Of a DNA stretch of 64,000 nt, positions 5,961 through 51,903 are shown one piece after another. The stretch is from the NCBI GenBank assembly GCA_963768715.1, contig CAVYJC010000011.1:4050-68049 (forward strand). Reading direction: 5' to 3'. The notes below the pieces were generated by a model that saw only the letters and a list, made by a program, of their open reading frames with translations, was not told where the DNA came from and did not search any database. Source of the stretch: an uncultured Bacteroidota bacterium. Its GTDB lineage: Bacteria > Bacteroidota > Rhodothermia > Rhodothermales > DATKEJ01. The translations under genes were made by a program, and so were the position numbers. Every line of letters starts with the position of its first letter. Within the stretch, counting starts at the first letter, position 1.

Positions 5961-7338
5961 TTAGAGTGCGTGCACTGGTTCCTTGACAATTGGACTTCGG
6001 CGGCGCAGGCCGACAAACGCAAACGTTGCAATGAGCGAAGCCAGGAAACTCCACAGCAGGATGTGCCGGATCCAGTATGTCCGCGCACCGTCCGTCGGAA
6101 AATTCGCCAGGGCCAACGGCGGCTTGAACCAGTACCGCTCGAGGTTTCCCCAGAAAAACGTACTGTTCTTGAAGAGCATGCTGTAGTCGTACCGGATATC
6201 CTCCACATTCGGCGGCCGCCGCCATTTGTAGATCGAGCTCGTAACGAACTGCCGTTCGACGATCCCGTTGACGTCCGCGAAATCGGCGTTGACGAACGTG
6301 CCGTCCTCGCCTTCGAGTTCCGGCCACCCCAGTCTTTGTAAACGCGAGCCGTCACCCGTCCCATGCGTCGTGCTGTCGCAGTTCTGACAGTTCCACCGTA
6401 TTGAGAAAGCGTCCGTTTTTATCCTTGGCGTAGACGAGACCATAACTCGGGTCCACCCATGCCCAGCGCCCTTGCTCGGGAATCCAAGCCTCTACCCATG
6501 TATGCCCGGTGAGGACGAAATCGTTGCCTTCAAGCCGAGCTCCCTGGATCAGTCTTGCCTGAAGGCCGGCCCGGTTCGCGAAATAGGTGAACATCTGGGC
6601 ATGCTGCGTGCACCATCCCTGCGACTCACCTGAGTCCATTTCCTTGTAGATCTGGAAGGGCGTCTTCCAGCGGAAATCCGGAGGGGGCGTGCCGCGGCAC
6701 TTTTGCCCGAGCTTGCTGCGGAAATGCGCCATGAGCTTCTCGAGGCGCTCGGTGACGGTGTCGTCGGACCGGATGCCGACCTGATTCTTCAGGATGTCGT
6801 CGGTTGCTGCGAGATCGTCCCGGCTCATGTAGCCGTAATCGTCGACCCAGGCGCTGACAGGATACTCTTCGAAGCGTGCTGTGGGCACGTCCGTTCGGAT
6901 GAGATACGTATCCGGCCGGGGCAGGCCGCGGTTCGTATGGAATGCCTCGGGGAGAAACCGGATCTCGATTTCAAGCGGCGGAAAGAGTCCTTCCGGTTCC
7001 GGGATCGCTTTGTAGAGGTGCATCGCTTCATCGCCGACCGGAGTAGGGAAGAAGGGGTTTGCACCCTGGTTCTGCGAGTAAGGCGCGCCTTCTTTGAGAA
7101 TGCGCCAACCCTCGACAGGGGCGTTCCAATTGAGCACGGCCTCGATGCCGCCGTCGACCTCTTTCCAGTCGGAAATCACCGGCCGGTCGGTCGAATAGTA
7201 AATGGTCGCGTAGGTGGTCGGATAGTAGCTGTCCTCCATGTCGCGATTCAGGAAGAAGGCGATGTTTGCAGCCAGGAGAAGGAGTGTGAGGGCGCCCAGA
7301 TAGGGAAGCCATCGACGTCGATTGACAGAGTCGGACAC
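5961..7338 (-). CDS. transglutaminase-like cysteine protease-fold membrane protein, with an apparent frameshift at 6352-6357
   Basis: Cys-His-Asp pattern: GWCTQHAQ ... GHTWVEAW ... WVDPS. N-terminal TM. ORF 6352..7338 ends ..HDAWDG*. Removing one base of the CCC run at 6355-6357 continues into ORF 5961..6443 (DGSRLQRLGW..., C-terminal TM). Confidence 0.6.
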
Positions 7339-7443
7339 AGGAGTAGCGGGTAGATCAGGTTTCCAGTCAGTCTATCTATCCAATATCCTGATTATCGGAC
7401 GGGTTATCCAGTGGGGTGTTATATCAAGGATCAATCGTCGACG

Positions 7444-7504
7444 CCCGCACGGGAATAAATCCCCATGTTCCCCACGCCCGCACGGGAATAAATCCCCGTG
7501 CTAC
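7444..7504 (-). repeat. two adjacent REP copies (variant 2; the left one is degenerate)
   Basis: cccgcacgggaataaatcccc[a/g]tg. The reverse complement reads GTAGCACGGGgatttattCCCGTGCGGG, i.e. a 5' GTAG followed by a hairpin. Confidence 0.75.
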
Positions 7505-7612
7505 AATGAATCACGCCCGCTAAAGCGGGCTGGGTGCGAAATGCCTTCCGGGTTCCAGCCGCATTACGATAGGGGCAATCCACAGCCCTGCGGCAGCAGG
7601 GCGGGACGTATT

Positions 7613-7641
7613 GTAGCACGGTTGCTTCAGCGCCGTGCGGC
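7613..7641 (+). repeat. REP copy (variant 1)
   Basis: GTAGCACGGttgcttcagcgCCGTGCGGC, preceded by the hairpin gccctgcggcagcagggc. The same module recurs 3x at 8271-8566. Confidence 0.75.
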
Positions 7642-7710
7642 CATGGCAGACGGCGCGACCGTCGAGGAGAGACGACAGGACCTGCAACCCCAACACCAGC
7701 TACCCGTGAT

Positions 7711-8110
7711 TCACCATCGTTCCAGATCGTCAATGAGTCTGCCTTTGCGGTGATGCGTCTCTTGATTCAAGACGTATTGCACGGTCCTGCCAATCTCCTG
7801 ACGCCTGATGGTGAATGCTCCGTACTCTGATTGCCAGGCGAAACTTGTTGGGCGAAGCATCCGACTCATCTTGAATGATGTGGCCCCCTTTGATGCGATC
7901 CACAAATGTCGCGACATCCAATGTTGGCGGAAGCGAAACCACCACGTGGACGTGGTCTTCAATCCCTCCTACGGCGTGCACAACCGCATTCAATTCTCGC
8001 GATTGCTTCCGTATTTCTGCATGGAGCGTCTCGCAAAGCGACCCCGAAATAAGAGGAGCTCGGCCCTTCGTTGACCAAACAAGGTGGTAATGCAGCTGGC
8101 AATATGGCAT
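7711..8110 (-). mobile_element. REP-associated tyrosine transposase (RAYT, IS200/IS605 TnpA-like Y1 HUH enzyme), with a frameshift at a G5/C5 run
   Basis: MPYCQLHYHLVWSTKGR..., HUH motif DHVHVVV. After deleting one base of ccccc at 7884-7888 the frame continues KGATSFKMS..FAWQSEYGAF..VQYVLNQETHHRK (catalytic Tyr / NQxxHH). The ORF track splits it into 7730..8209 and 7711..7962. Confidence 0.8.
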
Positions 8111-8202
8111 GGGTGTCGTGCGTTTCTGAATAGACACCTGGGGGCTACAAACGTAACCTGGATGCAATCGCAATCTCACCACGTGCGTCGATGACCCCAA
8201 CA

Positions 8203-8230
8203 CCCGCACGGGAATAAATCCCCGTGCTAC
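8203..8230 (-). repeat. REP copy (variant 2)
   Basis: Identical to the 7477..7504 core, followed by the hairpin cccgctgaagcgggc. Confidence 0.75.
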
Positions 8231-8270
8231 AATGGGTCAACCCCGCTGAAGCGGGCTAACGACAGTCGAA

Positions 8271-8566
8271 ATCGCCAGGAAGTGCCGAAAATTGAGGACA
8301 ACCCAGCCCTGCGGCAGCAGGGCGGGACGTATTGTAGCACGGTTGCTTCAGCGCCGTGCGGCTGGCGTCCCAATCGCCAGGAAGTGCCGAAATTTGAGGA
8401 CAACCCAGCCCTGCGGCAGCAGGGCGGGACGTATTGTAGCACGGTTGCTTCAGCGCCGTGCGGCTGGCGTCTGAATCGCCAGGAAGTGCCGAAATTTGAG
8501 GACAACCCAGCCCTGCGGCAGCAGGGCGGGACGTATTGTAGCACGGTTGCTTCAGCGCCGTGCGGC
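8271..8566 (+). repeat. tandem array, 3 x 102 bp, each unit ending in a variant-1 REP
   Basis: Unit starts (atcgccagga) at 8271, 8373 and 8475. GTAG of the REPs at 8334, 8436 and 8538. Confidence 0.9.
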
Positions 8567-8592
8567 CATGGCTGTCGCGTTCTCGCCAACGA

Positions 8593-19904: not shown

Positions 19905-19932
19905 GACGTCCGACGTCCGACGTCCGACGTCG
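19905..19932. repeat. tandem heptamer array (GACGTCC)x3 plus GACGTCG
   Basis: Starts 3 nt after the stop codon at 19900-19902. Confidence 0.9.
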
Positions 19933-19991
19933 TCTCGAGAAGGTCTGGAGCGCTTGCTGAAGGCGTCGCCGCTGGGAATGCTCGGACCTTC

Positions 19992-20026
19992 TAATGACTA
20001 ATGACCAATGACCAATGACTAATCCC
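19992..20026. repeat. tandem heptamer array (YAATGAC)x4 plus a partial unit
   Basis: taatgac taatgac caatgac caatgac taatccc. Overlaps the stop codon (20019-20021) of the K+ channel gene. Confidence 0.9.
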
Positions 20027-21198: not shown

Positions 21199-22569
21199 TC
21201 AGATCGCCAGCTTGCGGAATACCCGCATCCGTACGCCAGGACGCGGCTCGAGCGTTGCCCCCATGTGCGGGCGGACGTCCCGGTCAATTAGCTCAAATTG
21301 AAACGAACTGAGAAGGTGGGCGAGCACGACCTTCGCTTCGATCTGGGCATATGCGGCGCCGATGCAGTTGCGCGGACCTCCCCCGAACGGGACGTAGGCG
21401 AGACTCGGCCTCCGATCCTTTCCGGGTTGGAATCGCTCCGGAATGAAGGCCTCGGGATCCTTCCAGATCTTGGGATCACGATGCGACAGATAGATGGAGT
21501 ACATCACGCGTCGCCCTTCCTCCAGCCGGTGTCCTCCGAACTCAATGTCCGTTCGGACGCGTCGATTGCCTACATGGATCGGCGGATACAGCCGGAGCGC
21601 CTCCTTGATTACCCAGTCGACATACTCCATATTCGCCAGGGACGAAGTGTCGATTCCATTCTCGCCTACCACGTGATCGACCTCGGCCGTCGCCCTTTGG
21701 AGTGCGGTTGGATTCGAGCCGAGAAGCCACAGAGCCCAGGCGAGCAGCGCGGTACTCGTATCGTGTCCGGCGATCAGCATCGTGAGCAATTGGTCACGGA
21801 TCAGATCGTCGCTCATGCCATCGGTCTGGATGAGCGTGCCCAGGAGATCCGACGTGTCCGCCCCGGCGTCGGACGCTCCAAGTTGCTGCCGGCGCTCGTC
21901 AATGATCGCGTAGAGGTAATCATCGAGCGTGCGTAGCGGAGCCATGAATCCAAAGCGCGGCATCTCGGGCCAGACAATCCAGGGACCGGGCGAGATGAAT
22001 GCAATCGAGCGCAAAATGGGATGCCAGAGGCGATCGAGATCCGGGCGGAAATCGATCTTGAAGAGCGTCCGCATCAGGATTACGAGCGCGATCTTCCGCA
22101 TCTCGACCAGCATGTCGACAGTCGCTCCATCCTTCCACTGGTCCGTTACGAAGCGCGTCTCTTCGAGCATCAGGGGGATCTGATCGACAGCCTCTCGTTT
22201 GTGAAGCGACGGGTTCATGCACTCCCTGAGCGCGGCGTGCCGCTCACCGTCTTCGACGAGCAGTCCGTGCCGGAGCAGTTTCGTGACCGCATCCGACTCC
22301 GTACGAAAACAGAACTGCTCACGGTCCGAAACGAGGAGGCGGCGGTTGAGCTCCGGGCCTACGACGACCACGGGATCGAATCCCGGGAGCGAGATCTCAA
22401 AGAAATCTCCGACCTGTTCGTGCATGACCGAAAGCGCGGCGAGAAACGATCGCTCTCTGGCCAGTGCTCGCAATACATCGAGCCCGGTCTTTCGATCGGC
22501 AACCGGGACGTGGGGTAGTCCTTCAAGCGTCGATGCGGGCACCTTCAGTTCGTCGACGAAGCCTCCCAA
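21199..22569 (-). CDS. cytochrome P450
   Basis: Heme loop 'FGGGPRNCIGAAYA', 'EALRLYPP', 'AGHDTS'. The start overlaps the upstream gene by 25 nt and may be slightly later. Confidence 0.85.
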   Translation of the reverse strand: MGGFVDELKVPASTLEGLPHVPVADRKTGLDVLRALARERSFLAALSVMHEQVGDFFEISLPGFDPVVVVGPELNRRLLVSDREQFCFRTESDAVTKLLRHGLLVEDGERHAALRECMNPSLHKREAVDQIPLMLEETRFVTDQWKDGATVDMLVEMRKIALVILMRTLFKIDFRPDLDRLWHPILRSIAFISPGPWIVWPEMPRFGFMAPLRTLDDYLYAIIDERRQQLGASDAGADTSDLLGTLIQTDGMSDDLIRDQLLTMLIAGHDTSTALLAWALWLLGSNPTALQRATAEVDHVVGENGIDTSSLANMEYVDWVIKEALRLYPPIHVGNRRVRTDIEFGGHRLEEGRRVMYSIYLSHRDPKIWKDPEAFIPERFQPGKDRRPSLAYVPFGGGPRNCIGAAYAQIEAKVVLAHLLSSFQFELIDRDVRPHMGATLEPRPGVRMRVFRKLAI

Positions 22570-24491
22570 ACGTTGTTCGATCGGTCGACGTCAGGCATGA
22601 ATTGGTCGGGATCGATCTCGACCTTGGTCACGCTTCCAGCGGGGAAGGTCAAGGTGGCCTCTCGATTTCCGGCGAGCCAGACCTTCACGTCGACGCGCTG
22701 GCTTTCCTTTTTGCCATCCGCATAGGTTACCGTGACAGGAGCGGGCATCGTCGAAAGGCCCAGGTCGCGGATCGTAACGTTGACGCCGTCATCGCTCGAA
22801 TCGACGGAGGCCACGGCCTGATCAAGCGTCCACGTTTCATAGAACGCGGATCGCCAGAACCAGTCCATGTCCTCTCCGGTCACGTCTTCGAACGTATTGA
22901 ACAGATCGTACGACGTCGGATGTTTGAAGGCCCAGCGGCGGGCGTATTCCTTGAACGCTTTGTAGAAGAGGTCTTCTCCGAGCAGGCCGTTCAACGCGTG
23001 CAGCATGACCGCCGGTTTGCTGTACGACGCGATGCTGTAGGCCTCGGTACCGAAGGGATACTCGTCTGAGTGGCGCATCGGGGCGACTTCGTAACCGCTG
23101 CCGGCTATCCGATAATAGGCTTGCCGTTCGGGGTCCCAGACGTTCGGATCGTGGTTGAAATCCACGTTTCCGTTGCTCTGATTGAAGGAGGTCAGGCCTT
23201 CATCCATCCAGGCATTTTCTTTTTCGTCCGACCCGACGATCATCGGAAACCACATGTGCCCGATCTCGTGGTAGGTGACGCTGAAGAGTCCGCTTTCAGA
23301 TCGGCCTCCTCCGATGAGCGTCATCATCGGATATTCCATCCCGCCCCGGATGATGCCTTCGACGGTGGTCATGTGCGGCCAGGGGTAGGGGATGACGTCC
23401 TTCGAGAGATTCTCGATGGAGAATTTTCCGAACTCCGCCGAACGATGCCAGGGTCTCGCCTGCGGACGGTAGAATGCATTGATTGCGACGTGGTCTGATT
23501 TCCCGTCGTTGTCGCGATCGGGAACTACGGCGTGAGTGGCGTCCCAGACGTAGGCGTCGGACAGACCGAATGCGAAGTCACGGACATTGCTCGCCGTGAA
23601 GTGCCAGGTTGCGTTACCGGTATTCGTCGGTACGAAGGCGGAGTCGCGATTATCGTCCGTCACGATATTCACGACATCCGAATCGGTCGCCGCTTGCGCG
23701 AGGCGCCCCAGCACTTCCGGAGTCAGGATCTCCTCCGCATTCTGGAGGACGCCGGTTGCCGGTACGAGGTAGCCCTCAGGCACCGTGACGCGGACATCAT
23801 AGTCGGCGTAATCCATGTAGAACTCACCGGTACCCATGTAGCGATCGAGGTCCCATCCGTCACCAAATCCTGGGCCACCCGTAACATCATCATATACAGC
23901 GACTTGAGGATACCAGTATCCAAGATAGAAGACCTGGCCGTCGGTGCCCATCCTCATATTGGAGGAGGATGCCGGGATGGGGAAGTCCCAGCAGAATCGC
24001 ATGTCGACCGATCCGCCGGGTTCAACGGGATCGACCAGATTGATGACCATTTTTGTCCCGCTGATCACGTAGCCGTCGAGCCGCGGGTCGCCCTGCTCGA
24101 TGATCGGCTTGTCGTTGACGGAGGCGCACGAGAGGTTGATGCCTCCTGTCGTGACGGTGTTCCGATCGCGGATCTCGCCTTCACGGTAGAGATTCTGGTA
24201 GAGGTTCAGCACGAGACGATGGAGGACGTCGGGGGAATTGTTGTGATACGTGACTGACTCGGTGCCGCCGAGCTCAAAGGAGGCCGGCGATACGGTCACG
24301 TCGATGTCGTAGGCCGCGGTGTTGGTCCAATAATGCGGACCGGGTTTCCCGTCGCGGCTGCGGGTGCCGTTCTCGACGGCGCGCTTGAACTGGGGTGTTT
24401 CGAAGACGGGATAGGGGAGCGGGCGGGTGCCCTGGCCGAAAGCGGTTCCAGCCGTAATCAGCAGAACGGCCGCGGAAAGAGAAAGTCGCAT
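22545..24491 (-). CDS. M1-family zinc metallopeptidase
   Basis: 'VTYHEIGHMWF...WMDEGLTSF' (HExxH + E). Signal peptide MRLSLSAAVLLITAGTAFG at 24491. The ORF extension to 24752 is a translation of repeat elements. Confidence 0.85.
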   Translation of the reverse strand: MRLSLSAAVLLITAGTAFGQGTRPLPYPVFETPQFKRAVENGTRSRDGKPGPHYWTNTAAYDIDVTVSPASFELGGTESVTYHNNSPDVLHRLVLNLYQNLYREGEIRDRNTVTTGGINLSCASVNDKPIIEQGDPRLDGYVISGTKMVINLVDPVEPGGSVDMRFCWDFPIPASSSNMRMGTDGQVFYLGYWYPQVAVYDDVTGGPGFGDGWDLDRYMGTGEFYMDYADYDVRVTVPEGYLVPATGVLQNAEEILTPEVLGRLAQAATDSDVVNIVTDDNRDSAFVPTNTGNATWHFTASNVRDFAFGLSDAYVWDATHAVVPDRDNDGKSDHVAINAFYRPQARPWHRSAEFGKFSIENLSKDVIPYPWPHMTTVEGIIRGGMEYPMMTLIGGGRSESGLFSVTYHEIGHMWFPMIVGSDEKENAWMDEGLTSFNQSNGNVDFNHDPNVWDPERQAYYRIAGSGYEVAPMRHSDEYPFGTEAYSIASYSKPAVMLHALNGLLGEDLFYKAFKEYARRWAFKHPTSYDLFNTFEDVTGEDMDWFWRSAFYETWTLDQAVASVDSSDDGVNVTIRDLGLSTMPAPVTVTYADGKKESQRVDVKVWLAGNREATLTFPAGSVTKVEIDPDQFMPDVDRSNNVWEASSTN

Positions 24492-30438: not shown

Positions 30439-31894
30439 ATGATGGCTTCCAAGCCCCTTCGCGGCGTATCCGACATCCGCCGGTTTTTCTATCGTAACGA
30501 GACGCCTGTCTACTTTGTCAGTGCGACCAATTTCAACCTGCTGGGGGCGGACGAGTGGGTTAGGGGATTCAGGTTCATATCCTACATCGACTGCTTCGAC
30601 GGGCAGCATCCCAGCGTCTTCGTTCCAAAGGAGATGCCGCATGACACGTTCGAAAGCATCGAAGACATCAATCGGTACCTGCTCGAACACAAGGAGGTGG
30701 CCGACTACATCGGCAGGCGGGGTGAGGGAGGGAAGGTGCTGTTTTTGATGTTTGACGAGCAGACGGAAGACCTGGCCCGCGATCTTGGGCTCGAGGTTTG
30801 CTTTCCACCGGCCAAGCTGCGCCAGTACCTCGACGACAAGGTGACGACGACCCGCGTAGCAGACAAGGCCGGCGTACCGAGCGTCCCGAACGTCCTGGCC
30901 AAGGTCGACAGCTACGAAACCCTGCGTCGTGTTTCGGCGCCCCTGGGCAAGGACCTCGTCATACAGACTCCTTTCGGAGACTCGGGCCACACGACCTTTT
31001 TCATATCCGACGAGGACGACTGGAACGAGCACGCGTCGGAGATCGTGGCGGAGCCCGAGGTCAAGGTGATGAAACGTATCCGATGCCGCGGCTCGGCCAT
31101 TGAGGCCTGTGTGACCCGCCACGGCACCATCGTCGCGCCGCTCATGACGGAGCTTGTCGGCTTCAAGGAACTCACGCCGTACAAGGGAGGCTGGTGTGGA
31201 AACGAGATCTTTGCGGATACCTTCACGAGCAGTATCCGGCGTCAGGCGCGCAAGTATACGCAAGCGATGGGGGACCAACTCAGGGAGGAAGGCTACAGAG
31301 GCTATTTTGAGCTCGACTTTCTAATCGATGAGGACAGCGGGAAGCTCTATCTGGGTGAGCTAAATCCCCGTATCACGGGAGCGAGCTCCATTACCAACCA
31401 TGCCGTCTTTGCATTGGCGGATGCACCCCTGTTCATGTTTCACTTGCTGGAATGGTTCGACGTCGATTACAAGCTCAGCGTCGTGGGGATCAACCGACGC
31501 TGGGCGCGGCCGGAAAACATCGACACCTGGAGCCAGCTCGTGATCAAGCACACGGAAGACACCGTCGACGTCATCAAGAAGGCGCCGCCGACCGGTATAT
31601 GGAGCATGGAAAGGCGACGGGAGCGTCCATTTCGCACGCTTCGACACGCACCGACGGGCGGTCGAAAGCGAGTCTGAGGCTTTCTTTTTGCGCATTGCGG
31701 GGGCGGGCGACTATCAGTATGAAGGCGCAGATCTGGGCATTCTCGTCACGCGCGGGCGCTTGATGACGGATGACTTCCAGCTGAACGAACGGGCGCAGGC
31801 GTGGATTCGAGGCATCAAGGGCCATTTTGCAACGGGCGAACGCAGCAAAGTGGAGTACGTACCCGCCGAAGTCGGCAGTTTCAAGATGCTGTAG
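30439..31894 (+). CDS. ATP-grasp ligase, with an apparent 1-nt insertion near 31606-31614
   Basis: 'VIQTPFGDSGHTTFFI', 'GYFELDFLIDEDSGKLYLGELNPRITGAS'. The track ORF ends in Arg-rich junk (..MERRRERPFRTLRH). Shifting frame gives ..WSM-KGDGSVHFARFDTHRRAVESESEAFFLRIAGAGDYQ.., which runs into ORF 31688..31894. Confidence 0.7.
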
Positions 31895-32878: not shown

Positions 32879-32880
32879 CG

Positions 32881-32978
<98 letters not shown>

Positions 32979-33126: not shown

Positions 33127-33213
33127 GCCCAAGTGGCGGAATTGGTAGACGCGCTACGTTCAGGGCGTAGTGGCCTTATGGCCGTGGAGGTTCGAGTCCT
33201 CTCTTGGGCACCA
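33127..33213 (+). tRNA. tRNA-Leu (anticodon CAG), type II with long variable arm, CCA encoded
   Basis: Acceptor GCCCAAG/CTTGGGC; anticodon stem CTACG/CGTAG with loop TTCAGGG; variable arm TGGCCTTATGGCCGT; T-arm GGAGG-TTCGAGT-CCTCT; ACCA end. Confidence 0.9.
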
Positions 33214-33249
33214 GAAAACTGCAGACACCAAATTCAAACACCAAAGTTG

Positions 33250-33275
33250 GGGCACGCCGACGGCGTGCCCTTTTT
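33250..33275 (+). terminator. rho-independent terminator after tRNA-Leu
   Basis: GGGCACGC-cgacg-GCGTGCCC followed by TTTTT. Confidence 0.75.
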
Positions 33276-33577
33276 GGTTGTTCGCTGAACCTGATCGGTC
33301 TGCCTGCCGGGATCTAGCAGCACCCCCGTTGCTCAACGTCGGTAGCCAAAACGACAACCCGGCTCCATGCTTACCTAACCCAGCCCCACGGCTCTACTCG
33401 GAGCGAACAAAACCTGCCTCCGTCGGTCAAAACAGCCTTTGGACCAGTGCGCGTTGGCTGAGACCATGGAGAAACAAGCACGGATACGAAAACAGGTCGG
33501 CTCGAACAAGTCGCTGACTCCATTACAGCGGGCCTTCCTCCTGAGAACACTGATCCTTCCGTTCACAAAAGCAGATC

Positions 33578-34048
33578 TTGAGCGAGAAACCAACTTCGTT
33601 CGAAGAGTTGTTGGCCGATCTAAGTCGGCACGGCGTTGAGTACATCCTCGTAGGAGGGTTGGCAGTGGCACTGTGTGGTTTCATTCGCGCAACGCTGGAC
33701 GTAGACATTCTTGTACAGGCGGCAGAGGGAAATATCCGCCGGCTGCTGGACCGACTCGCTCTCTTCGGAGAAGGTCACGCCCGGGAACTCAAGGTGAACG
33801 ATTTCACGCTGGAAGAGGGTAGTATCCGCATAGTCGAAGATTTTGCAGTCGATGTCTTCACTCTGATGAGTGGCAACACCTACGAGGATATGTTGCCGCT
33901 TACGGCGCGGCACAGGATTGAGGACACAGAGGTTGTGTTTCTCAATGCTGAGGGTTTGATCATGCTCAAGGCCGACTCGTTGCGCCCACAAGATCAAATT
34001 GATGTGCAGACCCTCAAGGACATCATGCGAGGTCAGGACAGTCAATAG
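33578..34048 (+). CDS. small nucleotidyltransferase-fold protein (minimal NTase, about 156 aa)
   Basis: TTG start. 'GVEYILVGGLAVALCGFIRATLDVDILV' (GG...G..R.T.D.D pattern), 'LIMLKADSLRPQDQIDVQTL'. Confidence 0.6.
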   Translation: MSEKPTSFEELLADLSRHGVEYILVGGLAVALCGFIRATLDVDILVQAAEGNIRRLLDRLALFGEGHARELKVNDFTLEEGSIRIVEDFAVDVFTLMSGNTYEDMLPLTARHRIEDTEVVFLNAEGLIMLKADSLRPQDQIDVQTLKDIMRGQDSQ

Positions 34049-34206
34049 GCCTCAAATCTGATCGACGGCTCTGATCGAGCGGATCATGTTTTTGTCCAAC
34101 CAATACCACGATCGCTCGTGAGCGACTGGGCGCCAAGATGGCCGCCGGATAACTTCAAACACCGGATCTTGGCCCCGAGCGGGTGGGGCTTCAGGCTGCA
34201 AACTTA

Positions 34207-34235
34207 GGGTGCGCCGGTCGGCGCGCCCTTTTCTG
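34207..34235 (+). terminator. rho-independent terminator of cassette copy 1
   Basis: GGGTGCGCCGgtcGGCGCGCCC followed by TTTTCTGTTT. Confidence 0.65.
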
Positions 34236-34503
34236 TTTGTGCCGGCTAGCGGCCGGGGGGCAAAGTCTTCGTCACAGAACGCCCGACTCAACTCTGATCC
34301 TGACTCTCCTTCTTGCTTCCGATTCCGACCAACCTCCGCGTTGGCGAGTCTCGGCCATTTCAACCGGATCGTGCCGGTGTCGGAAGATCCGGACTCGTGT
34401 TCGTCCGGCCAGTGAACCGCGAATCTCGTCAGGGCCTCGGGCGCTGGGTAATCCGCGGGAGAGCAACCAGAAAAGCGGGGTCCAGTCGAGCGTCTAATCG
34501 AAA

Positions 34504-35259
34504 TCAATGCGCGAAGAGCTCACCGTTGTGCTCCCTCAAGTAACTTAGACGAACGTCCACCGCTCGGAGCATCGTCTGCAATTCCTCGACCTTCAGCATG
34601 TAGGTTTCACCACCGAACTCGAACAGCGCATACGGCTTGTCAAAGACAAGTCCAAACCGCAGAGTGCCCTCACCAAGATCAATGCTTTTCGTCTCATGGA
34701 CCCTGCCGTCCGTGCCGAAGGGGTCGCCTTCGACCAGGTAGGAATACAAGTTCCTAACTTCATCCGGAGTGAGCCTGAAGCTGACGACGCTTAGGCTCGG
34801 GTTTTCAAGTGACTCGTACATGCGAAGGACCTTCATTTCATCCTTCGCATGAGTCTGTTCCAAGGTTACCGTTGCATAGTACGCAGTGTCACTTGACGAA
34901 GCCGGGGCGTGGTCATGCCATGCTTCGATACTGGGATACTTGTGAGTCACGTCAACATGAGCCGAGACTTGAAATTCAAGAAGCGGAATTTCGCCGAGTT
35001 TCTTGTCGAAGTACTCTTCATACCTGCCGTCTTGGTCGGCGCCGGAAGCAGCACGGCCGAACGCTTGGACGAACTTCCTGAGGAAGATGTCCTCTTTGGA
35101 CAGAACGCGTGATTTGAACTTGTGAAACGGGAAGGAGATGGTCTCCGTTCTTGTCACCGGCGTAGTCCGAGAGTAGTCGGCATGTCCCTGTCCGAGTGCG
35201 ACATTTGCGCTAATCAGATTGAGGACGATCGTCGTGGCCGTTGCGAGTCTGACAATCAT
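34504..35259 (-). CDS. secreted hypothetical protein
   Basis: The Met at 35259 gives signal peptide MIVRLATATTIVLNLISANVALG. No family recognised. Confidence 0.45.
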   Translation of the reverse strand: MIVRLATATTIVLNLISANVALGQGHADYSRTTPVTRTETISFPFHKFKSRVLSKEDIFLRKFVQAFGRAASGADQDGRYEEYFDKKLGEIPLLEFQVSAHVDVTHKYPSIEAWHDHAPASSSDTAYYATVTLEQTHAKDEMKVLRMYESLENPSLSVVSFRLTPDEVRNLYSYLVEGDPFGTDGRVHETKSIDLGEGTLRFGLVFDKPYALFEFGGETYMLKVEELQTMLRAVDVRLSYLREHNGELFAH

Positions 35260-38394: not shown

Positions 38395-39612
38395 ATGAAC
38401 CTGAGCCTCATCGGAAAATCCATAAGTGAATCGGTCACCCTGAAGCTCAACGAGACGGCGGCCATTCTTCGGGCCAAGGGGGAACCGGTGATTCATCTCG
38501 GCGGCGGCGAACCCAAATCCAGGGCCCCGCTCGACGCCATCGTGGCCGCCGCAGGGTTGATCAATAGCGGGGAGGTACGCTATACCCCTGCGGATGGCAC
38601 GCCCGCATTGAAACAGGCAATCATTCGCTACACGGAGGAATTCTACGGTCGGAAGGTGGAGCCCGAAAACGTGATTGCTTCAGGCGGGGCCAAGCAGTCA
38701 ATCATGGTCGCCCTGCAGGCCATCCTGAATCCACAGGAAGAAGTGATCTTCCCGGCCCCATACTGGGTGAGCTACCCGGAAATGGCGAAGATGGTCGGCG
38801 CGGTCCCCGTGCCGGTCCCTCCCGAGGACGGTTCTTTTTATCCCCGGCTGGAAGACATCGAGCGGTACGTCACGTCCTACACGAAGGCCGTGATCATCAA
38901 TAGTCCCAACAACCCGACGGGGGCGATGTATCCCGAGCAATTCATCGCCGAGATCGTGGAGTTCTGCGAAGAACGCGGCCTGTTTCTGATCATGGACGAT
39001 ATCTACCACCGCCTCGTGTTCGACGGCAAGCGGCCCATCAGCTGCTACAAGTTCTCCAAGGATCTGAGCGATAACTCGAAGCTCATCGTGATCAACGGCG
39101 TATCCAAGCAGTACGCCATGACAGGGTTCCGAATCGGCTGGGCCGTAGCCAGCAAGCGGATCATCAGCGTCATGACCAACATCCAGTCCCACCAGACGTC
39201 CGGGCCTTCAGCCGTCATGCAGGTCGCCGCTGCGGCCGCGCTCAACGGCATCCAGTCAAGCGTGGAAAGCCTGCGAATGACACTGGAGAACAACCGCAAC
39301 GTCATGGTGGAGCGGCTGAGAGCGTTCGACGGCGTCAAGACGGTCGTGCCGGACGGCACCTTCTACTGCTTCCCCGACTTCCGGGCTTATGAGAAGGATT
39401 CGACCAAGCTGAGCAAGTTCCTGCTGGACAAGGTCCGCGTGGTCACGGTTCCGGGGGTTGAGTTCGGGATGGAAGGCTTCCTGCGCCTGTCCACGTGCGG
39501 TACGATCAAGGACATCACCGAAGGCATCGACCGGATCAAGTGGGCGCTCGATCCCAATGCACCGAACGAACTGTTTATTGGCGAGAGAAAGTTAGTGAGG
39601 GACTGGGTATGA
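38395..39612 (+). CDS. class I/II aminotransferase (aspartate aminotransferase-like)
   Basis: 'IHLGGGEP', 'IINSPNNPTG', 'NGVSKQYAMTGFRIGW' (PLP Lys). ATG at 38395. Confidence 0.85.
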   Translation: MNLSLIGKSISESVTLKLNETAAILRAKGEPVIHLGGGEPKSRAPLDAIVAAAGLINSGEVRYTPADGTPALKQAIIRYTEEFYGRKVEPENVIASGGAKQSIMVALQAILNPQEEVIFPAPYWVSYPEMAKMVGAVPVPVPPEDGSFYPRLEDIERYVTSYTKAVIINSPNNPTGAMYPEQFIAEIVEFCEERGLFLIMDDIYHRLVFDGKRPISCYKFSKDLSDNSKLIVINGVSKQYAMTGFRIGWAVASKRIISVMTNIQSHQTSGPSAVMQVAAAAALNGIQSSVESLRMTLENNRNVMVERLRAFDGVKTVVPDGTFYCFPDFRAYEKDSTKLSKFLLDKVRVVTVPGVEFGMEGFLRLSTCGTIKDITEGIDRIKWALDPNAPNELFIGERKLVRDWV

Positions 39613-41261
39613 CCAAATATCTCGAATTCGACACGCCTGCAGGCAAACACGCCGGCGAGCTGGCAAGCGATTTCAAATTGAAGAATCACGGGCTCGCTTA
39701 TCTGGACAGGGTCTTCTGGAACCTGCCCTCCTCGGCCCTTTACGAGGAAGCGGTATTCCGCGGCGAGGGCCACATGATGGAGGGCGGGCCTTTTCTTGTG
39801 CACACCGGAAAGTGGACCGCGCGGGCGGCCAACGACAAGTACATCGTCCAGGAACCGACCACCGCAGAGAAGATCTGGTGGGGCATATACAACCGCCCCA
39901 TGGCGCCGGAGAAGTTCAGCGGGCTCTTCGGGCGGCTGCAGGCCTTTCTCCAGGGTGAAGAACTCTTCGTCCAGGACTGCTACGTGGGTGCGGATCCCGA
40001 ATACCGCATGCCTATCCGCGTGATTACAGAGCACGCCTGGCAGAGTCTCTTCGCGCGGAACATGTTCATCACGCCGAAGACCCGCGACGACTACAGGCGC
40101 CACATTCCGGAATTCACCCTCATCGCCGCTCCCTCCTTCAAGCTGGACCCGAGCGTGGACGGAACGCGCACGGAAACTGCCATCGTTATCAACTTCGCTC
40201 AGCGGCTCGCGCTGGTTTGCAACAGCAGTTACGGAGGAGAAATCAAGAAGTCGTTCTTCTCCATCATGAATTTCCTGCTGCCCCTGCAGAACGTGATGGC
40301 GATGCATTGCTCGGCCAACGTCGGCGATGGGGGAGACGTGGCCCTGTTCTTCGGACTGAGCGGTACGGGGAAGACCACGCTTTCGGCCGATCCAAAGAGA
40401 AAGCTCATCGGCGACGACGAGCACGGCTGGAGTGACAACGGCGTCTTCAATTTCGAAGGAGGATGCTATGCCAAGGTGATCCGGCTCTCGGCTGAGAATG
40501 AACCGGAGATCTACGCCTGCACCCGCAGATTCGGCACCATTCTCGAAAACGTGGTCTGGGATCCCGCCACACGGCACATCGACCTCGACGACGACAAGGT
40601 GACCGAGAACACGCGGTCTTCGTATCCGCTGGAATTCATTCCGAACGCCATGCCTGAGAAGATGGCTCCGTCGCACCCGAAGAACGTCATCTTCCTGACC
40701 TGCGATGCCTCGGGCGTCCTTCCTCCAATCGCACGTTTGAACATGAACCAGGCGATGTACCACTTCATCAGCGGCTACACCTCCAAACTCGGTGGCACTG
40801 AAATCGGCCTCGGCGCCGAACCCGAAATTACTTTCAGCGCCTGTTTCGGCGGTCCCTTCATGGTCCATCACCCCTCTTACTACGCCAATCTGCTGAAGCA
40901 GAAGATGGAGAGGTACGGAGCCACGTGCTGGCTCGTGAACACGGGCTGGGTGGGCGGCAAGTTTGGCGTGGGCAAGCGCATCAGCATCCGCCATACGCGC
41001 AACATGCTGGATGCCGCCCTGGAGGGCAAGCTGGACGGCGTGAAGTATCGCAAGGACAAGCTATTCGGCTTCGAAGTGCCGCTTACCTGTCCCGACGTGC
41101 CCTCCGACGTCCTGGAACCGTCCAATGCCTGGGGAAATAAGGAGGAGTACTGGATGAAGTACGACGCGCTCGGCGCCCGCTATATCGAGAACTTCAAACT
41201 CTTCGCCGGCGAATGTTCCGACGAAGTCGTCAAGGCAGGCCCAAAACGGCTCGGCAAGTAG
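39609..41261 (+). CDS. pckA: phosphoenolpyruvate carboxykinase (ATP)
   Basis: 'TGKWTARAANDKYIV', 'FFGLSGTGKTTLSADP', 'IGDDEHGW', 'NTGWVGG'. ATGA overlap with the upstream stop. Confidence 0.95.
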   Translation: MTKYLEFDTPAGKHAGELASDFKLKNHGLAYLDRVFWNLPSSALYEEAVFRGEGHMMEGGPFLVHTGKWTARAANDKYIVQEPTTAEKIWWGIYNRPMAPEKFSGLFGRLQAFLQGEELFVQDCYVGADPEYRMPIRVITEHAWQSLFARNMFITPKTRDDYRRHIPEFTLIAAPSFKLDPSVDGTRTETAIVINFAQRLALVCNSSYGGEIKKSFFSIMNFLLPLQNVMAMHCSANVGDGGDVALFFGLSGTGKTTLSADPKRKLIGDDEHGWSDNGVFNFEGGCYAKVIRLSAENEPEIYACTRRFGTILENVVWDPATRHIDLDDDKVTENTRSSYPLEFIPNAMPEKMAPSHPKNVIFLTCDASGVLPPIARLNMNQAMYHFISGYTSKLGGTEIGLGAEPEITFSACFGGPFMVHHPSYYANLLKQKMERYGATCWLVNTGWVGGKFGVGKRISIRHTRNMLDAALEGKLDGVKYRKDKLFGFEVPLTCPDVPSDVLEPSNAWGNKEEYWMKYDALGARYIENFKLFAGECSDEVVKAGPKRLGK

Positions 41262-41373
41262 CGATTTCGGATCGATCGTAGCGAGGCAAAGCTCATGCGG
41301 AAGCATAGGACCGAACAAAACCTGTGTCTGTCGGTCAAAATAATCTTTGGACCAATGCGCGTTGGCGGCGACC

Positions 41374-41490
41374 ATGGAGAAACAAGCACGGATACGAAAA
41401 CAGGTCGGCTCGAACAAGTCGCTGCCTCCGCTACGGCAGCGCCTTCCTCCTGAGAACATTGATCCTTCCGTTCACAAAAGCAGATCTTGA
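41374..41490 (+). CDS. possible 38-codon upstream ORF coupled to the NTase gene
   Basis: MEKQARIRKQVGSNKSLPPLRQRLPPENIDPSVHKSRS*. Its TGA overlaps the TTG start (tcTTGAgc). The frame is not preserved in copy 1 because of a 1-nt indel. Confidence 0.2.
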   Translation: MEKQARIRKQVGSNKSLPPLRQRLPPENIDPSVHKSRS

Positions 41491-41957
41491 GCGAGAAACC
41501 AACTTCGTTCGAAGAGTTGTTGGCCGACCTGAGTCGTCACGGCGTTGAGTACATCCTCGTAGGAGGGTTGGCGGTGGCACTGTGTGGTTTCGTTCGCGCA
41601 ACACTGGACGTAGACATTCTTGTACAGGCGGGAGAGGGAAATATCCGCCGGCTCCTGGGCCGACTCACTCACTTCGGAGAAGGCCACGCCCGGGAACTCA
41701 AGGCGAGCGATTTTACCCTGGAAGAGGGTAGTATCCGCATAGTCGAAGATTTTGCAGTCGATGTCTTCACCCTGATGAGTGGCAACACCTACGAGGATAT
41801 GTTGCCGCTTACGGCGCGGCACAGGATTGAGGACACAGAGGTTGTGTTTCTCAATGCTGAGGGTTTGATCATGCTCAAGGCCGACTCGTTGCGCCCACAA
41901 GATCAAATTGATGTGCAGACCCTCAAGGACATTATGCGAAGTCAGGACAGTCAATAG
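41487..41957 (+). CDS. small nucleotidyltransferase-fold protein, second copy
   Basis: 148 of 156 residues identical to 33578..34048 (counted by eye). Confidence 0.6.
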   Translation: MSEKPTSFEELLADLSRHGVEYILVGGLAVALCGFVRATLDVDILVQAGEGNIRRLLGRLTHFGEGHARELKASDFTLEEGSIRIVEDFAVDVFTLMSGNTYEDMLPLTARHRIEDTEVVFLNAEGLIMLKADSLRPQDQIDVQTLKDIMRSQDSQ

Positions 41958-42081
41958 GCCTCAAATCTGATCGACGACTCTGATGGGGCGCGGAATGTTT
42001 TCTTGTCCAAACGACACCACGATCGCTCGTGAGCGACTGGGCGCCAAAATGGGCACCAGATAACTTCAAACACCAAACCTG

Positions 42082-42110
42082 GGGCGCGCCGGTCGGTGCG
42101 CCTTATTTGT
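42082..42110 (+). terminator. rho-independent terminator of cassette copy 2
   Basis: GGCGCGCCggtcGGTGCGCC followed by TTATTTGTTT. Confidence 0.6.
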
Positions 42111-42160
42111 TTCAAACAGAGGATTCTTACTCCTTGCCTGCACAACCCATCGCCGGCGCC

Positions 42161-45429: not shown

Positions 45430-45605
45430 GATGTTAGTAGCTTCTATGGGATGCCGTGCTGGATAACGTATGAATGTTCGGCATCGTTTTCCATTCTTAC
45501 ATGAATGCCCGCCTGAACCTGAGGTCGAGTGAGTTCCCACGCACAGACGTTGAGAGTCTGGGATAAGGATCCCGCGTGAAGGGCACGGACCTCAACCGGT
45601 TTCAG

Positions 45606-46002
45606 CATGCGGAGTTTGCGGCGGCGCCGTATTTTCCATGCGGACACTCGCTTATCCAACCCGAGCGTTTCTTTGTCGGCGCATATGCTTGCATGATCGG
45701 GTCGCGATCGTGGACGCCTTCTCTCGGCGCTGCGCGACCGGCATTTGTACCTGTTGATTCACCGCCCCTCATCGGCGGCGGCGAACTCCCACACCTCGGA
45801 GCCAGGCTGCGCCGTGCTGGAAGCACTCGAGACAGGCGAACTGGACGAGGATCGGTACCGGAGCCACCAGAAACTGAAAAAGGAAGTGGCCTATCTGGAG
45901 CGCCGGAAAGACGAGTCGGCCGCGTTCGCACAGCGGGAGCATGACAGGAAGCTCACCCGCCTGTACAGGAGAACGATGAAGCAGAAGCGAGACGGGAGAT
46001 AG
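45606..46002 (+). pseudogene. rsgA: internally deleted ghost copy of rsgA (5' leader fused to the last ~70 codons)
   Basis: 45606-45781 aligns with 50252-50427 (the rsgA leader). 45785-46002 aligns with 51329-51542 ('EPGCAVLEAL.TGELD.DRY.SH.KL.KEVAYLERRKD.SAAFAQR.H.R.LTRLYRRT.KQKRD'). Confidence 0.8.
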
Positions 46003-46156
46003 GGGGCAGGGCGCACCGATTTTGCCTGGCGCCACACTGTTCCTCTTTCGCAGGGTTGGCGTCTCTAATGACTTGCCCCCGCGTGAAAGACTGGAGCCGG
46101 AACTCTGTACCTAAGACAAGAGTTGACATTTTCAAGTATAAACTTGGGAAACAGTT

Positions 46157-50209: not shown

Positions 50210-50465
50210 ACACGCTCTGATCTTAAAGAGCGCTGCCGCTACCGGCCTCATCATGCGGAGTTTCCCGCCGCGCCGTATCTTTCCGCCGGACATTGCTCAC
50301 CTAAATCCAGAGCGTTTTTTTGTCAGCGCATATGGTTGCCTGATCGGGTCGCGATCGTAAACGCCGTTGCCCGGCGTCGCGCGACCAGCATTTCTATCTG
50401 TTGATTCATCGCCCCTCTCGGCGGCGGTGGCACTTTGTGCTGCTCAAACGTTATTCAAGCAAGCA

Positions 50466-51542
50466 ATGTCAATTTCCAATTTGGGCTGGACTCCGTTCTT
50501 CAGCCAGACTCTCGAACAATTCGACGCTCCCGGATTGAATCCGGCCCGCGTCTTTCGACAAGACAAACACCGATTCCTCGTTCACACAGGATCCGACATC
50601 GTCCCCGCCATACTGACCGGTTCGCTGACGAGCCGGCTCGCTGCAGCGGGCGACAGTGTCACTGTAGGGGACTGGGTCCTTGTGACGGCAGACCTCAACA
50701 GCGAGACACAATCCATTCACGAGCTGCTTCCGCGCCGAAGTGCTTTCAAACGAAAAAGTGCGGGTGCTGCGACGCGTGAACAGGTGGTGGCGGCCAATCT
50801 CGACATCGTGTTCCTTATCAGTGGACTGGATGGCGACTTCAACCTTCGCAGGATCGAGCGCTATGTAACACAGGCGTGGAGTAGTGGTGCTACACCCGTC
50901 ATCCTCCTGAACAAGGCCGACGTTTGCGACGATGTAGAAGGCCGATTGATGGCAGCTAGCGCCGTTGCGCCTGGTGTTGATGTCCATACCGTCAGTGCGA
51001 GGAACGGAACAGGTGTCAAGGAAATCGAGGAGTATCTGCGGCCCGGCGTCACAATTGCGCTGCTTGGATCTTCCGGTGTTGGCAAGTCAACTTTACTCAA
51101 TTCGTTGATGGGTGAGCACCGGATGGAGGTCGGCGACGTCCGCGAGGATGACAGCCGGGGTCGCCATACCACAACGCACCGTGAGATGATCATTCTTCCG
51201 AGCGGAGCACTCGTCATCGATACACCCGGAATGCGCGAACTGCAGCTCTGGAGCTCGAGCGAAGATCTCCAGCGGACCTTCGCGGAGGTGTCTGATCTGG
51301 CAGCACAGTGCCGATTCAACGATTGCAGCCACACTACGGAGCCCGGTTGCGCGGTGCTCGAGGCGCTGGCGTCGGGAGAACTGGATCAGGATCGTTATGA
51401 CAGCCACCTGAAGCTCGAGAAGGAGGTGGCCTACCTGGAGCGTCGGAAGGACGACTCGGCCGCGTTTGCACAACGGCAGCACGAAAGGGAGCTCACGCGG
51501 TTGTATAGACGAACAATAAAGCAGAAGCGAGACCGCAGATAA
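50466..51542 (+). CDS. rsgA: ribosome small-subunit-dependent GTPase A
   Basis: Circularly permuted GTPase motifs 'LLNKADV', 'LLGSSGVGKSTLLN', 'DTPGMRE'. Zn motif 'CRFNDCSHTTEPGC'. Confidence 0.9.
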   Translation: MSISNLGWTPFFSQTLEQFDAPGLNPARVFRQDKHRFLVHTGSDIVPAILTGSLTSRLAAAGDSVTVGDWVLVTADLNSETQSIHELLPRRSAFKRKSAGAATREQVVAANLDIVFLISGLDGDFNLRRIERYVTQAWSSGATPVILLNKADVCDDVEGRLMAASAVAPGVDVHTVSARNGTGVKEIEEYLRPGVTIALLGSSGVGKSTLLNSLMGEHRMEVGDVREDDSRGRHTTTHREMIILPSGALVIDTPGMRELQLWSSSEDLQRTFAEVSDLAAQCRFNDCSHTTEPGCAVLEALASGELDQDRYDSHLKLEKEVAYLERRKDDSAAFAQRQHERELTRLYRRTIKQKRDRR

Positions 51543-51578
51543 GGGTTCGTATGAATGTCCAGCCTTCCCGGCAAGCTT

Positions 51579-51713
51579 CTACTTCAGCAAAAGGACAGAT
51601 TTAGACGACTGAAATCGCTCCGTCGTGAGACGATAGATATATACTCCGCCGGGCAGATTGTTTGCATGTAGCGTTACGGTGTGTGCACCAGCCGAAAGCG
51701 TTGTCTCAAGCAT
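51579..51713 (-). pseudogene. orphan T9SS C-terminal-domain remnant
   Basis: The minus strand reads ..LSAGAHTVTLHANNLPGGVYIYRLTTERFQSSKSVLLLK*. There is no gene body upstream. It lies inside the 139-bp tandem duplication. Confidence 0.55.
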
Positions 51714-51903
51714 CCGTCAACTCTGCGGTTTCAACTGCAGCAGAACACAGATTCCGGAAGCTGTCTGGACGATAGATATATACTCCGCCGGGCAGATTGT
51801 TTGCATGTAGCGTTGCGGCGTGTGCACCAGCCGAAAGCGTTGTCTCAAGGAGCGCGTCGACCCGGCGGTTTCAACCGCTGCGCACACAGATTCCGGAAGC
51901 TGT
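51631..51903. repeat. tandem duplication, 2 x 139 bp
   Basis: cgatagatatatactccgccgggcagattgtttgcatgtagcgtt... recurs at 51631 and 51770. Confidence 0.9.

Follow-up and report, generated by a model that had tools for sequence, protein, structure and literature searches.

Why does one contig of an uncultured Bacteroidota bacterium (Rhodothermia; Rhodothermales; DATKEJ01) carry the same 0.8-kb cassette twice, once beside a tRNA-Leu gene and once behind pckA, and what does this cassette encode? The window analyzed here is a stretch of 64,000 nucleotides (nt) from assembly GCA_963768715.1 (contig CAVYJC010000011.1, positions 4,050 to 68,049 of the forward strand), and all coordinates below are positions within it. 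The repeated unit is a two-gene module, composed of a small gene and a gene for a nucleotidyltransferase (NTase), and it is conserved across many phyla. In the account that we consider fairly probable as a whole, it is a relocatable toxin-antitoxin (TA) module of the MenAT1 kind, copy 2 arose from a copy linked to tRNA-Leu, and the 3′ parts of the two copies were homogenized later.

The Duplicated Cassette

The principal features of the two copies are as follows.

33400–34136, + strand: cassette core, copy 1; the left edge, GAACAAAAC, is common to all close relatives, and the right edge is the point at which the related cassette L083 diverges
41308–42047, + strand: cassette core, copy 2; begins 46 nt past the pckA stop codon
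33466–33639, + strand: small partner gene, copy 1, 57 amino acids (aa), MEKQARIRKQVGSNKSLTPLQRAFLLRTLILPFTKADLERETNFVRRVVGRSKSARR; ATG at 33466; its last 62 nt lie within the NTase gene, in the −1 frame relative to it; hidden Markov model (HMM) of the family, E 2e-17
41374–41548, + strand: small partner gene, copy 2, disrupted; 1-nt insertion near 41440; the family HMM matches two frames separately
33578–34048, + strand: DUF6036 NTase, copy 1, 156 aa, TTG start; Pfam PF19502, E 4.3e-9, 36.8 bits
41487–41957, + strand: DUF6036 NTase, copy 2, 156 aa, TTG start; Pfam E 2.1e-8, 34.5 bits
34049–34136, + strand: 3′ untranslated region, copy 1; conserved in the three closest cassettes only; its terminal CTGGGCGCCA is similar to a tRNA 3′ end

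The copies were compared by BLASTN of the window against itself. The alignment of 33400–34163 with 41308–42074 spans 768 columns (93.2% identity; 47 mismatches, 4 gaps), and no cassette match was found elsewhere in the 64 kb beyond these two copies. An earlier sequence-only reading of this DNA had described two collinear 0.8-kb NTase copies, and the self-comparison agrees; the copy starts that it gave (33404 and 41312) are accurate to within four bases of where homology begins (33400 and 41308). The encoded NTases are identical at 148 of 156 positions. Of the eight differences that it had counted, seven cluster at residues 36–74 (I36V, A49G, D58G, A61T, L62H, V73A and N74S), and the eighth, G152S, stands apart.

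The conserved 3′ region of about 110 nt that had also been described is shared by the two copies, but it has no structure signal and no wider conservation. Its fold energies equal those of shuffled sequences (z 0.30–0.35), which leaves structured RNA unsupported, and the tRNA is the sole Rfam match at E ≤ 1 over 32.8–42.4 kb. A structured RNA in the leader or the 3′ region was rejected on these grounds. Also rejected was a minus-strand open reading frame (ORF) of 151 aa at 34052–34507, which runs through the terminator and the 3′ region of copy 1; it has no Pfam match, and its G+C by codon position (0.60/0.57/0.63) is not gene-like.

A Small Partner Gene Overlaps the Start of the NTase Gene

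What had been called a leader, 175 nt in front of the NTase, proved to contain a conserved gene for a basic 57-aa protein that runs across the NTase start; the earlier label was mistaken. These 175 nt are conserved between the copies and in a Rhodothermales metagenome-assembled genome (L001/L003), in which the NTase is 81% identical, and the changes between the small ORF of copy 1 and that of L001 are mostly synonymous. No gene has been called for the small ORF in L001.

The family was sampled at 80 loci with relatives of the NTase, drawn from contigs of one genome per species, plus several metagenomic loci (four from the metagenome scan). A regular-expression scan for the two motifs described below found an equivalent small ORF at 60 of 82 loci, or 64 once close relatives fetched later were added. 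An HMM of the small family, run over the fetched loci, gave 83 matches adjacent to an NTase and one elsewhere (L035), with three NTase loci lacking a match. With the scans combined, a homologous small ORF lies upstream of or overlaps the NTase at about 80 of 84 loci, across many phyla. In the alignment, these ORFs are 50–67 aa long and carry the motif [IV]-R-K-x-V-G-R near each end with a helical middle; in copy 1 the twin motifs read IRKQVG and VRRVVG.

Three features show that the small ORF is a protein rather than a nucleic-acid signal. First, motif 1 lies outside the NTase gene, and there its codons vary while its amino acids are kept: Ile is encoded by ATC, ATA or ATT, Arg by CGC, CGA, CGG, CGT or AGA, and Val and Gly by all four of their codons. 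Second, the small ORF of L073 and of L076 stops where the NTase begins, so that the genes do not overlap, and motif 2 is still present. Third, the NTase codons 7–12 are fixed at synonymous positions in 58 loci that span many phyla, with T7 as ACG in 19/19, E9 as GAA in 51/51 and L12 as TTG in 58/58. The codon for F8 is TTC in 42/42, compared with an approximately 50:50 split in four other conserved Phe columns, and a TTT at this position would place a TGA stop in the small-ORF frame. Because codons 7–12 are frozen in this way, the overlap stretch is dual-coding, and it bears the classic dual-coding signature. A programmed frameshift that fuses the small ORF to the NTase was considered and rejected as unneeded, since L073 and L076 have separate, non-overlapping genes.

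The association also holds when approached from the small protein. In a reverse lookup, both of the two loci retrieved carry an overlapping gene of 152–154 aa (overlap 50–56 nt); for one of these genes, a weak DUF6036 match had been precomputed. The small family gives 410 matches at E ≤ 0.01 in a set of 5.8 billion proteins and 224 clusters at 50% identity in a library of 1.84 billion representatives. Among the 120 best of the 410, no Pfam domain occurs and, with the exception of one evidently spurious name, the entries are either unnamed or labeled “hypothetical”; the window’s small protein likewise has no Pfam match. The family is newly recognized here and carries neither a Pfam model nor a name. 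AlphaFold2 (AF2) models the protein as a helix (residues 19–41) with two low-confidence arms. Outside the close clade, identity is 16–40% for the small protein versus 41–60% for the NTase, and this faster divergence, usual among antitoxins, fits such a role for the small protein.

The NTase Resembles the Toxin MenT1

Classification by HMM, which had been left as a check, places both NTases in DUF6036, above the PF19502 gathering cut-off of 23.6 bits, with the motif GG..R.T.D.D. Neither has a match in NCBIfam. Invariant across 27 family members are G26, G27, R37, T39, D41 and D43, and, toward the C-terminus, K131, S134, R136, D139, Q140 and D142. An AF2 model built from 27 sequences has a pLDDT (predicted local distance difference test) of 90.8, and its best Foldseek match in the PDB is MenT1, both alone and in the MenAT1 complex: 8an5_B is matched at E 2.1e-5 with probability 1.00 and a TM-score of 0.65 over 156 columns, and 8an4 is also MenT1. 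TM1012 and then LnuA follow. The sequence profile also matches MenT1 (E 4.7e-4), and it aligns GG..R37-x-T39-x-D41-x-D43 to the MenT1 motif RfTrDvD, which includes T39, D41 and D43 of MenT1.

The public protein entries P0003 and P0122, from the protein set of the source genome, give both NTases as 127-aa forms that start at V30 and omit the N-terminal helix and the GG motif. These calls skip 33578–33666 and 41487–41575 of the window.

The MenAT1-like reading is adopted because the NTase model best matches MenT1 and shares GG..R.T.D.D with it. Membership in the MenT/DUF1814 family would be a stronger statement, and it is not claimed here, because the family model is unmatched and the partner is unrelated to MenA1.

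MenT1 adds cytidine monophosphate (CMP) to tRNA 3′ ends, and it is neutralized by MenA1, a 68-aa protein that is encoded upstream and has no DNA-binding domain. A single MenA1 molecule engages two MenT1 protomers and triggers auto-phosphorylation of T39 (PMC10435456, PMC11375011). By analogy, the small ORF and the NTase most likely form a TA pair. The NTase would be growth-inhibiting and would modify RNA 3′ ends, probably the acceptor ends of tRNA. The small protein, as the putative antitoxin, would be translated in excess from the ATG that lies upstream, and the NTase starts at a weak TTG inside the first gene. The two identical arms of the small protein would each engage and block one NTase protomer, and the overlap would tie the sequence of the second arm to the N-terminal helix of the toxin.

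A Terminator Module Reaches into tRNA-Leu

How the cassette came to lie at two sites is addressed by the sequences that flank it.

33127–33213, + strand: tRNA-Leu (CAG); found by ARAGORN; Rfam tRNA, 51.4 bits
33204–33279, + strand: left direct repeat T1; the final nine tRNA bases, TGGGCACCA, tandem 13-mers CAGACACCAAAT and TCAAACACCAAAG, and a hairpin at 33249–33271 followed by a T run
33276–33399, no strand: spacer of 124 nt, in copy 1 only, between T1 and the left end of the cassette; unmatched in copy 2, L083 and other loci
34139–34240, + strand: right direct repeat T2; degenerate tRNA-end-like TGGCCGCCGGATAAC, TTCAAACACC, an extra 36-nt hairpin, and a hairpin at 34206–34229 followed by a T run
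39609–41261, + strand: pckA, ATP-dependent phosphoenolpyruvate (PEP) carboxykinase, upstream of copy 2; Pfam PEPCK_ATP, E 2.8e-210; protein entry P0247 is 100% identical, 550 aa
42049–42112, + strand: T3, at the end of copy 2; TGGGCACCAGATAAC, resembling the 3′ end of tRNA-Leu (14/15 versus 33204–33218), TTCAAACACCAAA, and a hairpin at 42080–42105

Each of the three modules ends in a G+C-rich hairpin followed by a T run (33249–33271, 34206–34229 and 42080–42105), and the RNA fold of T1 reaches −27.9 kcal/mol (z −3.2). With up to 2 mismatches allowed, TTCAAACACCAAA occurs 6 times in the window versus 0.9 expected, and none of 100 shuffles reaches 6. Its plus-strand sites are 33220/33233, 34154 and 42065; on the minus strand it is found at 30744 and 44256, each with 2 mismatches. 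A third terminal module directly after tRNA-Leu had been proposed, and it is present there as TTCAAACACCAAA at 33220/33233 plus the hairpin at 33249–33271. The notion that the module is a generic terminator was rejected, given that the plus strand of the 64 kb has it at just the three sites described, that the two minus-strand matches, the only others in the window, carry 2 mismatches each, and that the pckA relatives terminate differently.

T1 (33204–33279) aligns to T3 (42049–42111) with 53 of 60 matches and a score of 52, compared to a shuffle maximum of 31, and 0 of 2000 shuffles equal it. The alignment starts within the tRNA gene: TGGGCACCAGAAAAC and TGGGCACCAGATAAC, which comprise the last nine tRNA bases plus flank, agree at 14 of 15 positions. 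T1 and T2 match at 33 of 40 positions in the terminator part (0 of 2000 shuffles equal), while the tRNA-end part at the right end of copy 1 is degenerate and not significant alone. Copy 1 is therefore bracketed by direct repeats, as had been seen before, and the repeat also takes in the final 9 nt of tRNA-Leu. The 36-nt hairpin in the terminal module of copy 1 had not been listed earlier. In L083, the right-hand module is absent and a module-like sequence lies 85 nt upstream of the cassette.

Since copy 2 carries a fragment with both the tRNA end and the terminator, it was most likely copied from a tRNA-Leu-linked copy. By the same token, the shared tRNA-end fragment suggests that T3 came with the cassette and is not the original terminator of pckA.

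The core end CTGGGCGCCA (34126–34134 and 42037–42045; L083 865–876) agrees with the tRNA-Leu 3′ end, TGGGCACCA, at 8 of 9 positions, and copy 2 thus has two tandem tRNA-end-like sequences with AAA between them. This core end may be what remains of an older integration, or its likeness to the tRNA end may be chance. A resemblance of the left end of the cassette, ACAAAACCTG, to ACCAAACCTG in T3 was judged to be chance.

The Cassette Changes Position among Relatives

The sequence-only reading had suggested insertion or recombination at a tRNA-proximal site, and had contrasted this with an old duplication in which relatives keep both copies at fixed positions. In the relatives found, the cassette is not at fixed positions, while its left homology edge, GAACAAAAC, is identical in copy 1, copy 2, L083, L084, L085, L087 and L001. 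In L083 (92% nt identity), the cassette lies upstream of a homologue (84% nt) of window 50266–50986; at the equivalent site, the window lacks a cassette and carries cydB-like and rsgA-like genes. In L085 and L087, it lies 310 nt past a homologue of window 22560–24452. In L003, it lies between a peptidase gene and a hypothetical gene, and in L084 beside a pair of PIN-domain genes. The closest pckA relatives found (L092–L095; 92% and 88% protein, 88% and 82% nt identity) keep the aminotransferase-pckA order, and their similarity to the window ends exactly at the pckA stop, where they have their own, different terminator and no cassette. Taken together, these comparisons support mobility of the module.

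L083 belongs to another organism, and its cassette differs from each copy in the window (92% identity) as much as the copies differ from one another, which may reflect either an old duplication or exchange of cassettes between genomes. G+C at third codon positions (GC3) is 0.62 in the NTase versus 0.80 in pckA and 0.75 in the aminotransferase gene, a mild compositional hint that the cassette may be foreign.

The L001/L003 cassette is situated approximately 2.8 kb from a gene for a large TIR/nSTAND/WD40 protein (L003 1–3169), and the PIN-domain pair adjoining the L084 cassette occupies L084 4460–5133. These neighborhoods resemble defense islands or TA islands. Carriage by phage or plasmid was rejected, as there was no phage match and the five plasmid matches have approximately 30% identity and other contexts. 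An association of the whole family with tRNA genes was likewise rejected: in 60 relative loci scanned, no tRNA gene adjoins the module, and the nearest is approximately 0.9 kb away.

How, then, does the module at tRNA-Leu relate to known integrative elements? Like the islets delimited by attL and attR at tRNA genes, it sits just past a tRNA gene and has a direct repeat that takes in the tRNA 3′ end. Unlike them, it lacks an integrase, its repeat is mostly downstream terminator, the insert is smaller than 1 kb, and the same module lies away from tRNA genes in relatives. The segment might be a decayed tRNA-targeting element that lost its integrase, with the NTase pair as surviving cargo and the pckA-side copy produced by ectopic recombination. 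The direct repeat of approximately 62–75 nt that includes the tRNA 3′ end, the second, older tRNA-end-like CTGGGCGCCA at the right end of the cassette, and the low NTase GC3 (0.75–0.80 in its neighbors) would all fit. However, the repeat takes just 9 nt of the tRNA and is mostly downstream, an arrangement not typical of integrase core sites, the search nearby revealed no integrase, and a tRNA gene directly beside the module was seen at none of the 60 loci. We regard a decayed element as unlikely; it is compatible with the MenAT1-like account rather than opposed to it. The earlier statement that no integrase or transposase is present was confirmed, insofar as ten neighboring ORFs over 27.5–44.6 kb have no such Pfam domain.

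Copy 2 Has a Disrupted Partner Gene

In copy 2, a 1-nt insertion near 41440, absent from copy 1 and L083, splits the small ORF. The N-terminal piece, MEKQARIRKQVGSNKSLPPLRQRLPPENIDPSVHKSRS, is 38 aa long and ends at a stop (41488–41490) that overlaps the TTG of the NTase gene, and the C-terminal piece, AFLLRTLILPFTKADLERETNFVRRVVGRPESSRR, which also ends in a stop, is in a different frame. The copy 2 NTase is intact and keeps all of the family-invariant residues. If the module is a TA system, the copy 2 NTase would rely on the small protein of copy 1 in trans.

The L083 cassette has a 1-nt insertion of its own (GACCCATCAAGG, L083 750–760) near the 3′ end of the NTase gene, which alters the last ~12 residues and leaves the small ORF intact. 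This damage is the reverse of that in window copy 2, with the NTase end altered and the small ORF whole.

Comparison with Known Two-Gene Systems

By both fold and profile, the closest known system is MenAT1 (Rv0078B-Rv0078A) of Mycobacterium tuberculosis. Both have a small NTase with GG..R-x-T-x-D-x-D and a short partner encoded directly upstream that has no DNA-binding domain (57 aa in this module versus 68 aa in MenAT1). In contrast to MenAT1, the NTase here has 156 rather than ~190 residues and belongs to Pfam DUF6036 rather than DUF1814, and the partner is dissimilar to MenA1 in sequence and its gene overlaps the NTase gene by ~60 nt out of frame. In addition, the twin motif suggests that binding here may be symmetric rather than asymmetric.

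Two other types of module are less similar. AbiEi/AbiEii, a type IV TA system of abortive infection, and other DUF1814 toxins share the NTase superfamily motif, and a weak PADLOC match to AbiEii was obtained (E 0.008–0.015). However, AbiEii is approximately twice as long and is paired with a large COG5340 transcriptional-regulator antitoxin, neither of which is present here. HEPN-MNT systems also combine a minimal NTase of similar size with a second gene, but there the NTase is the antitoxin and its partner is a HEPN RNase, in place of the 57-aa partner without a Pfam match found here, and the NTase motif begins with GS instead of GG. No HEPN partner was found in the neighboring ORFs, where the 57-aa protein is the only conserved neighbor. 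The suggestion that relatives of the NTase occur in an anti-phage context was not borne out, given the lack of phage matches, the distance of the plasmid matches and nothing from PADLOC beyond the weak AbiEii match.

The NTase could instead act on small molecules (antibiotics or metabolites) in the manner of LnuA or ANT(2″), with the small ORF as a leader peptide or a device for translational coupling. Its fold does match LnuA (4fo1, TM-score 0.58) and ANT(2″)-Ia, there is a weak match to Pfam Aminoglyc_resit (E 0.014), and initiation of the NTase within the small ORF would permit coupling. We nevertheless find such an activity quite unlikely: MenT1 is better than LnuA and ANT(2″) by fold and by profile, a leader peptide would not keep two 7-residue motifs and a helix across phyla, nor motif 2 where there is no overlap, and no resistance-gene context was seen in the neighborhoods examined.

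Possible Partial Gene Conversion between the Copies

The differences between the two copies are unevenly distributed. Identity is unbroken over as many as 161 nt (permutation p 1.3e-4), and part of the unevenness reflects coding versus non-coding sequence. Within the NTase ORF, there are 16 differences in the first 231 nt versus 3 in the last 240 nt (binomial p 0.0017), in accordance with the near-identical 3′ half described earlier; synonymous differences number 9 versus 2 (p 0.03).

The L083 branch provides a control for rate. Over 33400–33808, copy 1, copy 2 and L083 have 16, 15 and 16 private changes, respectively, and over 33809–34048 they have 2, 1 and 8. Fisher tests with L083 as the control give p 0.038–0.065. 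The pattern behind the recent conversion that had been proposed is uneven both for all differences and for synonymous ones, and also against the L083 control (0.04–0.07 in round figures), but the numbers are small and not decisive. Partial gene conversion of the NTase 3′ half is suggestive only; in this step, the 3′ half would have been homogenized between the copies after they separated.

Very unlikely, and already weakened, is an old segmental duplication of an ordinary, immobile housekeeping or accessory NTase with stronger purifying selection on its C-terminal half: recombinase, inverted repeats and target duplications were all unfound and the non-coding flanks are more divergent than the coding part, as selection alone predicts, but synonymous differences are also fewer in the 3′ half (2/11, p 0.03), the rate in L083 is similar in both halves (16/409 versus 8/240) whereas copies 1 and 2 fall from 31/409 to 3/240, the L083 cassette is 92% identical to each copy yet its flanking gene 84%, and cassettes lie at five or more loci in relatives, while the closest pckA relatives found have none behind pckA.

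Evidence That Weighs against a Mobile MenAT1-Like Module

Several observations count against the account favored here. Regarding the NTase, the C-terminal motifs III/IV, with the catalytic Lys and Asp, align to MenT1 at just 3.5 bits, despite the invariant K131–D142 residues; Pfam AbiEii/DUF1814 (PF08843) is unmatched at E ≤ 1 by either window NTase; and the PADLOC AbiEii match is weak (E 0.008–0.015) and covers residues 7–63. DUF6036/PF19502 is unmentioned in the literature searched, which gave no functional data for any DUF6036 protein. Regarding the partner, the AF2 model has low confidence in all parts but the helix, and a profile of 32 proteins detects no similarity to MenA1 or to any PDB chain, with no 8an5 MenA1 chain at E ≤ 10. 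The stoichiometry of binding and the toxicity of the NTase are what we infer and nothing more.

A broken antitoxin gene beside an intact toxin gene would normally be lethal, so that copy 2 points either to trans-protection, to a non-toxic NTase or to an assembly error. As for movement, the search revealed no recombinase (ten neighboring ORFs), no terminal inverted repeats and no target-site duplications, with 10-mers at chance level at most. The pckA comparison provides no clean empty site, as the right flank differs too. Finally, the conversion signal consists of few sites and a post hoc split.

Other Repeats in the Window

Short tandem arrays occur elsewhere in the window. A CGAACAT heptamer array (×13.6, 32879–32973) lies directly between the stop of an AAT-family gene and tRNA-Leu, and three further 7-nt arrays are intergenic (1427–1451, 19905–19931 and 19991–20023). 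In the Rhodothermales relative L001, a GGATTTT array is found right past the NTase stop (~6470–6530). Longer tandem repeats comprise a 102-nt unit (×2.9) at 8270–8566, with related copies from 7441 (7441–8572), and a 139-nt unit (×2) at 51629–51903, just downstream of the rsgA-like ORF at 50367–51542. Positions 45595–46005 and 50241–51545 are 78–82% identical, covering the upstream region and part of an rsgA-like gene, which suggests a second, partial paralogue. Of the two rsgA-like segments, it is the 50.2-kb copy that the gene flanking the L083 cassette matches at 84%.

Implications for the DUF6036 Family

DUF6036 is a widespread NTase family without a known function, and it comes with an obligatory, unannotated small partner gene. 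The resemblance to MenAT1 gives the family a concrete function that can be tested, and the partner would represent a new type of antitoxin with a different architecture. A further-reaching possibility, which we rate as quite improbable, is that, with its twin motif and the out-of-frame overlap, the small protein marks a new class of NTase regulators found across phyla, in which one short polypeptide would clamp two protomers symmetrically. The second clamp motif would be hard-wired into the N-terminal codons of the toxin, such that loss or mutation of either gene alone would be prevented; to spread, the module would need no recombinase of its own and would recombine at the tRNA-3′-end or terminator sequences that it carries, and CTGGGCGCCA at the transcript end could be a decoy or target of the NTase.

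The dual-coding stretch offers a clean natural example of overlapping genes that constrain each other across phyla. In this bacterium, the duplicated pair with one broken partner gene amounts to a natural experiment on trans-protection between paralogous modules.

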